Positions 13,813-16,497 of a stretch of DNA of 23,203 nucleotides are shown piece after piece. Position numbers and translations under genes: made by a program. This DNA comes from Thermoplasmatota archaeon (GTDB lineage Archaea; Thermoplasmatota; Thermoplasmata; GCA-020350865; JAUVCJ01). Where the stretch lies: assembly GCA_030595765.1 (NCBI GenBank), contig JAUVCJ010000010.1, positions 1 through 23,203 of the forward strand, in the 5' to 3' direction. Below the pieces are notes generated by a model that was given only the letters and a program-made list of their open reading frames with translations, was not told the origin of the DNA and searched no databases. Each line of letters starts with the position of its first letter. The first letter of the stretch is position 1.

Positions 13813-14820
13813 CTAGCGCCTTGCCCTGTGCAGGGATAATTTTCTTTTTGGAGGGATGAAGCTCTTCCTGGGTAATGGGTCGTTAGGCCCTTTCATTGTT
13901 CGAGCCTTCCCCATGAATATGCAGACGCTCTCAACATCAGACCAGAGGTAGCTGCTCAGGCGCTTGTAATCCACCGAGTCCCAAAGCAGGTAGGCCAGGT
14001 CATCTGCCAATTCATTGCGCAAAGAGCAAAGGACCTCGTTGGGGTCTTCCTGCACCGTGAATATCTTTGGGGATATGCGAATGTCTAGTTCGGCATAGAA
14101 TCCATCCTGGGTCGGCTTGAGCATGACCGTACTATCTCCGCGTTTTCCACTGCCGCTATCTAGACCCTGGACAGACACTTTTCCGTTGCTGGATATGGTG
14201 GCCTTTTCTGGAACTAGCATGGTCTCTAAAAGGTTCAATATGAATTGCTCAACTTCCCTTATGGAGCTGGTAAGTTCAGTTCCCAAGAACGTGCTGGAGG
14301 CCTGAATGTGGAGGGAGGCGCTGAAGGCCTTTAACCCACTAATTTCCGGAGAGCCATTGATGATCTTGGGCTCAACAGATACTACTTTTCCTGCTTCCAT
14401 TGCGAAACAGGATAGGGCCACCCCGTCGGTCACCACCGAAAGCGTGTTCTTTTTGCCACCTCTTGCAATGAGCGTCTCATCATCTGTGTGGCTGTGGAAT
14501 ATCGAATGAACATCTGAAAGGTCGCGAAATTCGGCGTGGTAGTCATCCCTGAACGGATGGGAGTGATAGAGTCCGACTATGCCGGCGTTTCTGGGGTAAC
14601 CAGTTGCAATTCTAAATTCCTCCATGGGGTCAGCGTGTGCACCCACTCTGGATTGGTGCAGGTACTTTCTGCATTGTACAGCATCCATGACAAATATCTC
14701 ATTCCTGAACCTGTAACCGGTCAGCCAGCCCAACACCTCATTGCCGCTGGACTTAGCCTCTTCCAGTGCATGCCCCAGCAAACCTTGCACTGAGGACTCT
14801 GTCATGGTAACATCTACCAT
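13813..14820 (-). CDS. JAMM/MPN+ metalloprotease-domain protein (335 aa) with a long uncharacterised C-terminal extension
   Basis: The motif elements are GNEVLGWLTG (Glu), GLYHSHPF (HxH) and FHSHTDDE (SxxD). ATG 14820 (MVDVTMTESS) lies 4 nt after the E1 stop. The track start at 14931 would overlap E1 by 107 nt. Confidence 0.75.
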   Translation of the reverse strand: MVDVTMTESSVQGLLGHALEEAKSSGNEVLGWLTGYRFRNEIFVMDAVQCRKYLHQSRVGAHADPMEEFRIATGYPRNAGIVGLYHSHPFRDDYHAEFRDLSDVHSIFHSHTDDETLIARGGKKNTLSVVTDGVALSCFAMEAGKVVSVEPKIINGSPEISGLKAFSASLHIQASSTFLGTELTSSIREVEQFILNLLETMLVPEKATISSNGKVSVQGLDSGSGKRGDSTVMLKPTQDGFYAELDIRISPKIFTVQEDPNEVLCSLRNELADDLAYLLWDSVDYKRLSSYLWSDVESVCIFMGKARTMKGPNDPLPRKSFIPPKRKLSLHRARR

Positions 14821-14824
14821 TTGC

Positions 14825-16015
14825 TCAATCCCTCCCATTCTCTTTGCTGGAGATCTCATCGAAAATCCTGGCAGCCCTATCCAATACATCAGGGCTCGGC
14901 CTTGGGATGCGGCTCTTGCCAGTCTCATCATTTACATCAGTTCTGTCATCCTTGTCATCGGCTCCTTCCTCGTCATCCTGAGTTCCGACATCATTATCCT
15001 CAGCCCTTTCTTCCGCCTCTTGGGCTCTGCCATCGCTATCATCAGCCCCTTCCTCGTCCTCTTGGGCTTTACCATCGCTATCATCAGTTCTTTTCTCGTT
15101 CTTTTGAGCTCTGCCGTCGCCGCAGATTGGGCACCCCGGATCCAACACCCAGTCCACCCTTTGGAGTGTGCCATCGGCTCCGTCGTAGATGAGGTATGGA
15201 GCCACGCTACCAAAGCCAAGCAGATGCTTGAAGGCTTCCTGGCACTGAAGGGAGGCGATGATCGACATCGTTGTTGGCAAGGATGTGACGTGACATAGAC
15301 CTGTGACGTGGTCAGGCGCATTCGGGTCCGGCTTAGGCTTGAAACCAGTCATGCCATGAGATTCGGTAAGCGGCCTGTTGCAACGGTAGCAAGGAGTTTC
15401 TCCTGGTAGCACAACATGGACACTGCCCCGTATGCCATCCAGGCTGGTGCCGCCATCAAATAGTGGGACTCCAGCTTTAACGCACTTAGCATTCAGGAAT
15501 AGCCTGACCCCAAAACTATCTACACATCCAAATAATGCATCGACTTTCTGATCCTCACTACTTCCTTCATTTCCCTCATTTCCTTCACAGCCTTCACCAC
15601 TTTTATCGCTATTAATGCTGTATAGGAGTCTGGAGTATCCCTTGTCGATAGTCACGTCCTGGGAGTTTGCTATGACCTTTGTGTCTGGGTTTGCAAGCTG
15701 AAGGTACTGGGCAATGGCATCGACTTTTGGCATCCCAACCTGGTCTGGTCTGTATATGAGCCTGTTCATGTTGGCCTGCTCCAAAGTGTCGTAATCAAAT
15801 ATCTCAAGGGTGCCAATGCCGCAACGAGCCAGTATGTCACAGACCACTGCACCCAAACCACCCACTCCAACAACTATTACCTTCATGGATCTGAGCCTTC
15901 CAAAATCCGCATGTGGAAACAGACCCAGTCTATGGTATCGGTCAGGCTCCATTGTATCACCATCCAACTCATCTCCTAACTCATCTCCCATTTCATTTCC
16001 CATCTCATTTCCCAT
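14825..16015 (-). CDS. UBA5-like E1 (ThiF/MoeB-fold ubiquitin-fold-modifier activating enzyme), 396 aa
   Basis: Motifs are [47 protein letters not shown], zinc cysteines CYRC and CPIC, and [19 protein letters not shown] (Cys codon at 15293-15295). These are near-colinear with human UBA5 as I remember it. ATG 16015 shares a base with the E2 stop (TGATG). The track start at 16024 is a GTG. Confidence 0.85.
   Translation of the reverse strand: [396 protein letters not shown]
14927..15094 (-). repeat. In-frame tandem repeat, ~42 nt (14 aa) x ~4, forming the acidic tail of the E1
   Basis: The protein reads [14 protein letters not shown] / [15 protein letters not shown] / [13 protein letters not shown] / [12 protein letters not shown]. 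The DNA units gccatcgctatcatcag...cctcgtcctcttgggct are visibly repeated. Confidence 0.8.
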
Positions 16016-16497
16016 CAGATCCACCCCTTTTTATCCAGGTCGAAAATGATGGCTTGCACCCAGTAGGAGATCTCTCGTTTCATGTATAGGGCGATACCAC
16101 AGTGTTCGTTCCACCAGTAGTTGCTTTCCATGTGCATGTCGCAAAGCCTCAGGCCAAGAACCTCGTCTTCAAGCTTTCTGTCAGTGTATTTCATGAGCGC
16201 CGGGATGGATGCGGCCGGTGGGGTAAACGGATACGAATTTTTCAGGATCAGGGTAAACTCATAGTCCTGGCGTTTTGGAGGGCTAATGATGCCAGTCCAG
16301 CGTGTGGCGCTTTCATCAGTGGGTCTGATGGAGAACCATCTGCGGCTTCCATCGCCTTTCTCAAGGTAGTCCAGATATTCCATGAGCTTCAGGAGGGCAT
16401 ATTTTTCCTCCTTTACCCTCATGTCCCACCCCTTCTCCCCTGGAGATACCACTGTGGAGCATTGAAGGAAGTAGAAAAGGTCTTCTTCCTTTTTCAT
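16015..16497 (-). CDS. UFC1-like E2 (ubiquitin-fold modifier conjugating enzyme-like), 160 aa
   Basis: The sequence RVKEEKYALL...RWFSIRPTDESATRWTG...DYEFTLILKNSYPFTPPAASIPAL...GLRLCDMH...CGIALYM...DLDKKG is colinear with human UFC1 as I remember it (RLKEEYQSL...[16 protein letters not shown]...[26 protein letters not shown]...GKICLTDH...FGLAHLM...DLIQKG). The candidate catalytic Cys codon is at 16141-16143. There is no HPN motif. Confidence 0.8.
   Translation of the reverse strand: MKKEEDLFYFLQCSTVVSPGEKGWDMRVKEEKYALLKLMEYLDYLEKGDGSRRWFSIRPTDESATRWTGIISPPKRQDYEFTLILKNSYPFTPPAASIPALMKYTDRKLEDEVLGLRLCDMHMESNYWWNEHCGIALYMKREISYWVQAIIFDLDKKGWI

Follow-up and report, generated by a model that had tools for sequence, protein, structure and literature searches.

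Can a conjugation pathway of the UFM1 type, with a dedicated activating enzyme (E1) and conjugating enzyme (E2), be encoded as a compact operon in an archaeon? The question is raised by a contig of 23,203 nucleotides (nt) from a Thermoplasmatota archaeon (JAUVCJ010000010.1 of assembly GCA_030595765.1; the whole stretch is called the window here), in which three genes packed head to tail on the minus strand encode an E2 of the UFC1 family, an E1 resembling UBA5 and a metalloprotease of the JAMM type. UFMylation is an essential modification in animals and plants which is linked to the ribosome and the endoplasmic reticulum (ER), and its origin is unsettled. The eukaryotic pathway is made up of the modifier UFM1, the E1 UBA5, the E2 UFC1, an E3 consisting of UFL1, DDRGK1 and CDK5RAP3, and the proteases UFSP1 and UFSP2. 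The answer reached here is that the three archaeal genes probably represent the enzymatic core of a UFM1-type conjugation pathway for a ubiquitin-like protein (Ubl), gathered in one operon.

Published surveys have described Ufm1 as absent from Archaea and Bacteria (Grau-Bove et al., PMC4327156) and both UFM1 and UFC1 as exclusively eukaryotic, with UBA5 being derived from bacteria (Picchianti et al. 2023, PMC10183829). Ufm1 homologues have since been reported in Asgard archaea and in no other prokaryote by a study that covers the Ufm1 fold only, with UFC1 and UBA5 unmentioned (Koestlbacher et al. 2026, PMC12962969). The sequence-only reading from which this analysis started knew of no characterised E2-E1-JAMM cassette, and no description of such an archaeal cassette was found in the open-access literature either, although an earlier report is possible.

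Three coupled genes and their protein families

The E2 gene (160 amino acids (aa); 16015..16497, minus strand) is followed by the E1 gene (396 aa from its ATG; 14825..16015, minus strand) and by the gene of the JAMM/MPN+ metalloprotease (335 aa from its ATG; 13813..14820, minus strand). All three were taken from the list of open reading frames (ORFs) and assigned by Pfam, profile search and structural model in the case of the E2, by the ThiF family and a PDB search in the case of the E1, and by motif and model in the case of the JAMM. Their packing, as described in the sequence-only reading, is present in the DNA, both junctions can be read directly, and the peptide motifs cited there all occur in the translated proteins. 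The E2 stop TGA (16017-16015) and the E1 ATG (16015-16013) overlap by 1 nt, base 16015, within the sequence TGATG at 16017-16013, and the E1 stop TGA (14827-14825) is separated by 4 nt from the JAMM ATG (14820-14818), about 10 nt upstream of which lies a GGAGG at 14835-14831. Mechanical ORF calls are longer, beginning at an upstream GTG at 16024 for the E1 and at an ATG at 14931 for the JAMM; the public-database copies of the two proteins (P0035, 396 aa, and P0155, 335 aa) start at the 16015 and 14820 ATGs and not at these longer-ORF starts.

A TATA-like box upstream of the E2 had also been pointed out, and CTAAATAA is indeed read at 16529-16522 (16522..16529, minus strand), on the upstream side of the E2 ATG (16497) and about 28 nt away from it. 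This distance would suit the archaeal promoter of a leaderless or near-leaderless operon mRNA, which makes the box a candidate promoter element. A scan of the window for sigma-70 promoters and terminators stayed at background level, but such models do not apply to archaea. The locus encodes, in a co-directional and tightly coupled manner, an E1, an E2 and an MPN+ protease in which E...HxH...SxxD is complete, and it has the composition by which prokaryotic JAMM-type Ubl cassettes are recognized.

The E2 belongs to the UFC1 family by both sequence and structure. Pfam UFC1 (PF08694) matches it with 36.7 bits against a gathering cut-off of 25, covering model positions 12-152 of 155, while UQ_con reaches just 16.5 bits. 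A family profile built from 34 homologues finds UFC1 chains in the PDB with E = 7e-9 to 2e-7, with all other E2s above 0.15. The Foldseek comparison that the sequence-only reading had proposed leads to the same family: with the AlphaFold2 (AF2) model of the E2 (predicted local distance difference test score (pLDDT) 87.7) as query against the PDB, the first 27 matches are all UFC1, with template modelling (TM) scores of 0.72-0.77 and a root-mean-square deviation of ~2.6 Å across 154 columns, and the next matches, UBE2J2/Ubc6 and others, have TM scores of only ~0.38. UFC1 is therefore the best match of this protein in sequence as well as in structure, as had been expected. The canonical HPN motif, the lack of which had been noted at the earlier inspection, does not occur in the E2 sequence. 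Cys119 (codon 16141-16143) lies within the invariant motif L-x-x-C-D-M-H-M and is kept in all 34 homologues. It aligns to the Cys of KICLTDH, which is Cys116 of human UFC1 and is named as C116 in PDB titles, so that the predicted correspondence of the two residues holds and Cys119 is presumably the catalytic residue of the archaeal enzyme.

For the E1, Pfam ThiF gives 156.7 bits, and the best PDB match is UBA5 with E = 3.5e-42 across residues 32-309. This is ahead of MoeB (1.7e-22) by 20 orders of magnitude, with ThiF (6e-17), UBA4 (8e-12) and Cap2/BubCD (~1e-6) further down. It is this ranking of match scores that supports the assignment of the E1 as UBA5-like, and together with NCBIfam scores below cut-off it agrees with the initial impression that the protein is nearer to UBA5 than to generic MoeB/ThiF or SAMP-type E1s. 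Scores such as these and that of Pfam UFC1 for the E2 lie far beyond chance. Identity to the adenylation domain of human UBA5 amounts to 34.5%, and the GxGGxG loop reads VVGVGGLG. Cys241 (15293-15295), within C-x-x-SLPTTM, is invariant in the family and aligns with Cys250 of UBA5, where the sequence-only reading had placed it; Cys250 is the active-site nucleophile of UBA5 (PMC12355090). The zinc site is kept as well, with both CxxC pairs, Cys209/212 (15380-15391) and Cys295/298 (15122-15133), aligned to those of UBA5.

Three in-frame repeat expansions, detected with Tandem Repeats Finder (TRF), add acidic low-complexity stretches to the window E1. The first is a 12-nt unit present 4.4 times in the N-terminal GNEM/GDEL extension (15964..16016, minus strand). 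The second, a 9-nt unit present 2.9 times (15562..15587, minus strand), lies in a 21-aa acidic insert of the adenylation domain which is specific to the window E1, and the third, a 42-nt unit present 4 times (14955..15120, minus strand), forms the ~80-aa acidic linker of the C-terminal tail. This tail is 97 aa long and ends in the helix motif kLxEIExAAEMFDKM, which is common to the E1s of 31 of the 35 tail-bearing relatives. Several other proteins of the window are likewise very acidic or charged.

The product of the third gene contains the JAMM motif residues E28, H86-S-H88 and S110-H-T-D113, that is, the elements E, HSH and SHTD noticed at first inspection, and all of them are invariant across 34 homologues. 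An unusual insert of ~18 aa separates HxH from SxxD in this JAMM family. The AF2 model (pLDDT 84.6) finds CSN5/CSN6, BRCC36, Rpn11 and the Rpn11 of Caldiarchaeum as top Foldseek matches (E ~1e-6), all of them confined to the N-terminal ~175 residues, which form the MPN domain. The C-terminal half (residues ~160-335; 13813-14340) is conserved and confidently modelled, with a pLDDT of about 90 and a predicted beta-beta-alpha-beta5-alpha-beta4 topology, and yields no match by sequence in either the PDB or Pfam. The protein ends in a basic tail, LPRKSFIPPKRKLSLHRARR, for which the conserved pattern is LPxKxYxxPKRRxxxKK.

An E1 of the ThiF superfamily next to a JAMM protein could also point to a system in which E1 and Ubl serve mainly sulfur transfer in the manner of MoeB, ThiF or UbaA-SAMP, with conjugation being secondary or absent. 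Archaeal SAMP/UbaA systems are dual-function, the best partial NCBIfam matches of the E1 are UbaA, ThiF and MoeB, and a desampylase model is the sole notable NCBIfam match of the JAMM (26.5 bits). However, the E1 scores are all far below cut-off (for UbaA, 106 bits where 450 are required) and span just residues ~42-125, the nucleotide-binding segment. Throughout the family the cassette includes a dedicated E2 whose Cys is invariant, whereas sulfur-carrier systems have no E2; a rhodanese domain is absent, and the Ubls found in relatives of the locus end in Val-Gly and not in Gly-Gly. Sampylation with HvJAMM1 resembles the archaeal cassette in combining an archaeal Ubl, a ThiF-family E1 and a JAMM isopeptidase, but differs from it in the lack of an E2, the MoeB-like UbaA, the Gly-Gly end of the SAMPs and the usually dispersed genes. 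Sulfur transfer as the main function is judged very improbable.

The likeness to the eukaryotic UFM1 pathway, by contrast, extends to several components. The archaeal E1 has the minimal adenylation domain of UBA5 with its in-domain Cys, the SLPTTM context and the zinc site, and the archaeal E2 has the UFC1 fold with the N-terminal extra helix, an aligned Cys and no HPN. In relatives, a putative modifier of 81-87 aa ends in Val-Gly and sometimes has a short tail that would have to be removed. The proposal of the sequence-only reading, an operonic hybrid of UFM1-type enzymes and a JAMM protease, is supported by UFC1 and UBA5 as best matches, by the aligned catalytic Cys residues and by the complete JAMM motif. 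The ground on which this reading stands, namely the family assignments, the aligned catalytic residues, the operon packing, the conservation of the neighbourhood and the taxonomic distribution, is established.

From this we infer a scheme for the biochemical steps, the modifier used here, its targets and the role of a zinc-ribbon protein. A small UFM1-like modifier would be adenylated at its C-terminal glycine by a homodimer of the E1, bound to Cys241 in a thioester, handed on to Cys119 in the E2 of the UFC1 family and from there ligated to lysines of targets. In this last step a convergent triple zinc-ribbon protein, membrane-anchored in this genome, may assist. The JAMM would trim precursors with residues beyond Val-Gly and strip the modifier off targets, thereby filling the role that is held by UFSP cysteine proteases in eukaryotes.

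The putative modifier gene in relatives and its absence from the window

The module was surveyed in 38 related genome loci and in metagenome contigs, with more than 100 related loci overall. Its standard form is Ubl - E2 - E1 - JAMM on one strand together with a convergent triple zinc-ribbon gene. A small Ubl gene immediately precedes that of the E2 in 36 of the 38 genome loci, in L121 and in 67 of 67 judgeable metagenome loci, which are those with enough sequence downstream of the Ubl. The two genome loci without it are L034, the sequence of which begins inside the E2, and L007. The Ubl has 81-87 aa with 58-93% identity across the family, and it always ends in [I/V]-V-G. Such a Val-Gly end has been described as unique to UFM1 among Ubls (PMC12355090).

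In some copies the reading frame continues beyond this glycine. Fifty of the metagenome copies stop at Gly and 15 bear tails, for example S, GL, SLPPSIL or GLPALDSGALTV, while further tails (FR, SC, SR, T and FQ) follow the Gly in genome copies. Variable tails after Val-Gly are encoded by about a quarter of the Ubl genes, L009 5644-5907 among them, and they form recurring types such as SLPPSIL/SLAPPIL and GLPALDSGALTV/VVSAPDSVGLTV. Judged by sequence, such a pattern would be expected if a terminal glycine had to be exposed in a modifier resembling ubiquitin. The SC tail of one Ubl consists of the same two residues with which human pro-UFM1 ends (…RVGSC).

In the window, the place of the Ubl is occupied by a 289-base-pair (bp) spacer, beyond which lies the divergent rlmE. 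Composition and TRF reveal a purine tract of 180 bp at this site (16541..16720, minus strand), which consists of degenerate short tandem repeats and is 93% purine on the coding strand. The tract is open in two frames and gives rise to K/E/R-rich ORFs at 16526-16753 (75 aa) and 16558-16818 (86 aa) on the minus strand. The first of these is also called as a gene in L041, a 2.7-kb contig (GCA_030595545.1) which is 99.6% identical to the window, with enzymes that are the same or almost so and 9 coding differences that are too few for a useful dN/dS. Both ORFs are without a Pfam or family match, and their reality is doubtful. The possibility that a K/E/R-rich ORF encodes a replacement modifier was considered and rejected, as it is the translation of a 93%-purine tract with two open frames, no Pfam match and no beta-grasp-like sequence.

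The loci without a Ubl gene are thus the window, the near-identical L041 and L007, which is otherwise the nearest relative of the window. Between the lineages of the window and of L007, identity has fallen to 70% for the E2 and 56% for the E1. L121 encodes an E2 with 66% identity to that of the window and 72% to that of L007, and its Ubl lies 12 nt upstream of the E2. Since L121 keeps the Ubl, the loss is confined to the window and L007 lineages. The window has evidently lost the Ubl gene from its usual place while each of the three enzymes keeps its catalytic residues, and for this reason the modifier used by these enzymes is most likely encoded elsewhere in the genome.

A loss of this kind could also have left behind an orphaned cassette, which is decaying or has been repurposed, or which serves another beta-grasp protein. 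The adjacency of Ubl and E2 is otherwise essentially universal, yet it is missing from the window, L041 and L007, and a low-complexity purine tract now sits in the Ubl position. The three in-frame repeat expansions that have accumulated in the window E1 and the failure of the metagenome scan to find a stand-alone Ubl would fit this explanation as well. However, catalytic and zinc-binding residues are all intact, the ORFs are of full length with their coupling preserved, and the C-terminal helix of the E1 is retained despite the expanded linker; the scan patterns, moreover, would not pick up Ubls that have diverged. Given that intact enzymes persist in both Ubl-less lineages, which are as far diverged as stated above, the orphan explanation is considered unlikely.

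Several observations nevertheless weigh against a UFM1-type pathway, and the first group of these concerns the modifier. When two archaeal Ubls and human UFM1 are compared with the 23-kb window by tblastn, the best E is 0.037, and a hidden Markov model of the Ubl gives a best E of 0.91 against the six translated frames, so that no modifier gene is found there by either search. The scan of metagenome contigs found no stand-alone Ubl gene of this family with patterns that, as said, are blind to diverged members. The Ubls of the relatives are linked to UFM1 weakly, by sequence scores that stay below threshold. Ufm1 is their only Pfam match, with E = 0.008-0.03 in 4 of 18 members, all below cut-off, and ThiS, MoaD and ubiquitin are not matched in Pfam. 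PDB matches are few (E = 0.05-1), and all or nearly all of them are UFM1 chains. Alignment to human UFM1 with hhalign reaches 51-71% probability over the N-terminal 40 residues, with a UFM1 sequence that is in agreement with the PDB alignment over its first ~50 residues.

The second group concerns the enzymes. The TAK motif of UFC1 (Thr106-Ala107-Lys108) is not kept in the window E2, where the profile alignment places L109-E110-D111, and the Thermoplasmata E2 family conserves Y-T-D-R-K-L-[DE]-D instead. Because of this replacement, the window E2 is filed as a member of a separate archaeal clade inside the UFC1 family and not as an orthologue of eukaryotic UFC1. UBA5 requires a C-terminal extension of ~70 aa with the elements UIS and UBS (PMC12355090), whereas most E1s of the archaeal family have 250-260 aa and no C-terminal extension. 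The handshake between E1, Ubl and E2 must therefore differ. The tail-bearing archaeal E1s have one conserved helix which is not recognizably UIS or UBS, and direct comparison gave no demonstrable resemblance of this tail helix to either element.

With regard to the protease, the Pfam assignments anticipated in the sequence-only reading stand in part: UFC1 is above cut-off and ThiF gives the 156.7 bits stated above, but the window JAMM lies just under the cut-off for both Prok-JAB (22.6 bits) and JAB (17.5 bits). Relatives of the window JAMM exceed the JAB cut-off. Finally, UFL1, DDRGK1, CDK5RAP3 and UFSP were looked for in the window and in the Pfam annotation of the genes that flank the cassette in four long loci, and none was found. 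The archaeal system further departs from the eukaryotic pathway in its operonic genes, in a protease that is a JAMM and not a UFSP cysteine protease, and in an identity to the human proteins of ~23% (E2) and 35% (E1).

The convergent zinc-ribbon gene and the genomic neighbourhood

On the far side of the JAMM gene, a convergent gene (12410..13747, plus strand) encodes a triple zinc-ribbon protein of 445 aa, which is recognized by Pfam DZR, Zn_ribbon_1 and Zn_ribbon_3. It starts with an N-terminal transmembrane helix (residues ~1-32), which is followed by a long acidic/helical linker and three C-terminal zinc ribbons. In 22 of the 24 loci that have a homologue, this gene stands tail-to-tail with the JAMM gene, and the 3' ends of the two overlap by 6-20 nt or lie within 15 nt of each other; it is also convergent in 29 of 39 complete metagenome cassettes. 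Homologues occur as short forms of 127-147 aa without a transmembrane helix and as long forms of 381-445 aa with one, and the three C-terminal ribbons are present in all. The genes on the other side of the module differ between loci. From this conserved neighbourhood it is likely that the zinc-ribbon protein is functionally linked to the cassette, be it as an adaptor, as an E3-like factor or as a substrate.

The remaining neighbours in the window are housekeeping and archaeal, with a CDP-archaeol synthase, the Hjc resolvase and RlmE. A connection between rlmE and the ribosomal role of UFMylation had been raised by the sequence-only reading, which itself called the adjacency weak, and this caution was justified. 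RlmE and Hjc are encoded in none of the 38 related loci, which means that the adjacency of rlmE is without functional signal, and the link was rejected.

Variable flanking genes are also a feature by which the module could be seen as an anti-phage defence system of the Bil/ISG15-like, Bub or CBASS Cap2/Cap3-like kind instead of a housekeeping pathway. The set of components, Ubl, E2, E1 and JAB, is of the same kind, a transposase is present in the window, and the nucleotide-binding segment of the E1 matches CBASS E1-E2 models with up to 62 bits and BubCD/Cap2 weakly. Yet in PADLOC-DB (version 2023, in which newer systems may be missing), the E2, the JAMM, the zinc-ribbon protein and the Ubl match no model and the E1 does so only with residues ~40-122, while E2 and JAMM are also without PHROG matches. 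UBA5 and UFC1 are far better matches, the Ubl is highly conserved at the 58-93% identity given above, unlike fast-evolving defence genes, and rlmE, Hjc and CDP-archaeol synthase are housekeeping neighbours. The bacterial Bil/Bub and CBASS Cap2-Cap3 operons share with the archaeal module an E1, an E2 and a JAB, with or without a Ubl, but these belong to other E1 and E2 families, are often fused, and are bacterial and defence-associated. A defence function is thus held to be improbable.

Other features of the window are recorded here for completeness. The transposase, a DDE type (DDE_Tnp_1_6, DUF772) at 314-1882 on the minus strand, is located at the left contig end in a region with a GC content of 0.39-0.40 as compared with ~0.50. 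Predicted extracellular or anchored proteins cluster at 1991-4621 (minus strand), 8807-10030 (plus strand) and 9920-12304 (minus strand); they comprise a clostripain-family C11 peptidase (876 aa), a protein with a CarboxypepD_reg domain and an S8 subtilase whose N-terminus is signal-like and whose C-terminus provides a hydrophobic anchor. At 18816-21374 (plus strand), a protein of 852 aa consists of an N-terminal domain of ~130 aa and a charged coiled coil, and has no Pfam match. The last ~1.8 kb (21400-23203; GC content 0.43) are free of ORFs above 86 aa and of Rfam or tRNA matches, and are possibly non-coding or degraded. Rfam has no match anywhere in the window.

Distribution of the family and the origin of the pathway

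All named homologues of the E2, the E1 and the JAMM are labelled as Thermoplasmata, Methanomassiliicoccales, Thermoplasmatota or 'Methanobacteriota' metagenome-assembled genomes (MAGs). The same archaeal labels are attached to the 31 species-representative genome loci found by E2 profile search, among which none is Asgard, bacterial or eukaryotic and the E2 identity is 51-80%. Where the sequence-only reading had left the host to be placed, the labels of these relatives point to an archaeon of the Thermoplasmata/Methanomassiliicoccales type and not to an Asgard archaeon. An exhaustive profile search for UFC1-like E2s in 1.84 billion representatives returned only 53 matches at E ≤ 1e-3, and 39 of the 41 proteins tested from the E2 search carry Pfam UFC1.

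UFC1-like E2s fall into three groups: the Thermoplasmata group with the motif LCDMHM, eukaryotic UFC1 with ICLTxHF, and a third group with ICH[DE]HM, the two named members of which are proteins of a Promethearchaeota MAG and a Lokiarchaeota MAG. Each of the three clades is monophyletic in 300 of 300 neighbour-joining bootstraps based on Poisson distances, in a tree that is unrooted and has no outgroup and so cannot tell which two of the three are sisters. Mean identities are 24.7% between Thermoplasmata and Asgard, 25.5% between Thermoplasmata and eukaryotes and 21.9% between Asgard and eukaryotes. Three separate and about equidistant clades argue against a recent transfer from a eukaryote.

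A recent horizontal transfer of UBA5 and UFC1 from a eukaryote into an archaeon would otherwise be suggested by the fact that these two are the nearest characterised relatives, and by an archaeal range of apparently one Thermoplasmata-type lineage plus Lokiarchaeia-type contigs. The distances involved speak against it, as the E2 is only ~25% identical to eukaryotic UFC1s and forms the clade described above, outside the eukaryotic and Asgard-type ones, the E1 is ~35% identical to human UBA5, and the family is spread over 31 species-level genomes with the E2 diversity already mentioned. In addition, the eukaryote-specific features, which are the TAK motif, the UIS/UBS extension and the UFSP protease, are absent, and the genes are operonic and partnered by a JAMM. 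Of all explanations considered, such a transfer is given the least credence.

The third E2 group comes with cassettes of its own. In L040 (Promethearchaeota MAG JBHLOL010000229.1), positions 21-2817 encode in one direction a UBA5-like E1, a JAB of 362 aa, a Ubl of 92 aa with a tail after Gly and a UFC1-like E2. The best PDB match of this E1 is again UBA5, at about 1e-47, and its motif is C-T-A-SLPTT. L040 thereby has the predicted gene content of a second archaeal UFM1-type cassette with another gene order. In L042 (642-2322), an 89-aa Ubl (ITLRFTT…IIGTVG-T) is followed by two tandem UFC1-like E2 paralogues, and the cassette adjoins an ESCRT-II-like (EAP30/Vps36-like) gene. The Asgard Ubls match one another with 1e-14 and the Thermoplasmata Ubl weakly with 0.009-0.018; hhalign against human UFM1 gives 26% probability, with the C-terminal Gly positions aligned.

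These Lokiarchaeia-type cassettes resemble the Thermoplasmata module in that a small Ufm1-like Ubl stands beside one or more UFC1-like E2s, in L040 along with E1 and JAB, and the Asgard Ubl recalls the Thermoplasmata one in its N-terminus ITLRFT... and in the Val-Gly end of L042. They differ in the order E1-JAB-Ubl-E2, in the E2 motif (ICH[DE]HM as opposed to LCDMHM) and in the inserts carried by the Asgard E2s. Their JAB is without the 18-aa insert and has a C-terminal half that is unrelated by BLAST, and no zinc-ribbon partner was seen in these cassettes. Two further loci of the Asgard type contain E2-like proteins with an altered active site. L043 (945-2082) encodes one in which the active-site Cys is replaced (MIDYDTH), beside a Ras-like GTPase, and L039 (96-2696) encodes an 866-aa SIR2-TPR-UFC1 fusion of a Lokiarchaeota in which Ser replaces Cys (MISHDHM).

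A useful comparison is the ubiquitin operon of Caldiarchaeum subterraneum (PMC6043591), which likewise combines a Ubl, an E1, an E2 and an Rpn11/MPN+ protease for processing and deconjugation in a compact archaeal arrangement. A small zinc-binding protein is associated there too, and the JAMM domain of the window protein has CsRpn11 as one of its best structural matches. By contrast, the Caldiarchaeum modifier is of the ubiquitin type with a Gly-Gly end, the E2 is a UQ_con protein with HPN and the E1 is Uba1-like/ThiF. Its zinc protein is a small RING E3, whereas that of the window has a triple zinc ribbon.

What is rated as new is the putative operonic, JAMM-served cascade of the UFM1 type in a non-Asgard archaeal lineage, of which the window would be an example without a modifier. 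Individual parts have been annotated before, as the JGI pipeline labels many E1s of this family as 'ubiquitin-like modifier-activating enzyme 5', and for the E2s UFC1 domains were already precomputed. More than 100 non-Asgard archaeal loci are in conflict with the survey statements that UFC1 is restricted to eukaryotes and Ufm1 to Asgard archaea and eukaryotes. The window is an informative exception among these loci, since its enzymes have been kept without an adjoining modifier gene.

Activity of the system would place the origin of the complete UFM1 cascade, beyond that of the fold, in archaea, and would make a compact system of four or five genes available for reconstitution. It would then be possible to ask whether the TAK motif, the UIS/UBS tail, the UFL1 complex and ribosome targeting are eukaryotic additions. 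A wider interpretation, which is put forward tentatively and at somewhat less than even odds, is that the core of UFMylation, made up of Ubl, E1 and E2, arose long ago in archaea and is still encoded by functional operons in two or more of their phyla (Thermoplasmata-type and Lokiarchaeia-type), with a JAMM in place of UFSP and, in Thermoplasmata, a (membrane-anchored) triple zinc-ribbon ligase or adaptor. Should this be true, eukaryotes would have inherited and not invented UBA5, UFC1 and UFM1, and the archaeal operons would provide biochemistry with a minimal, E3-poor UFMylation system.

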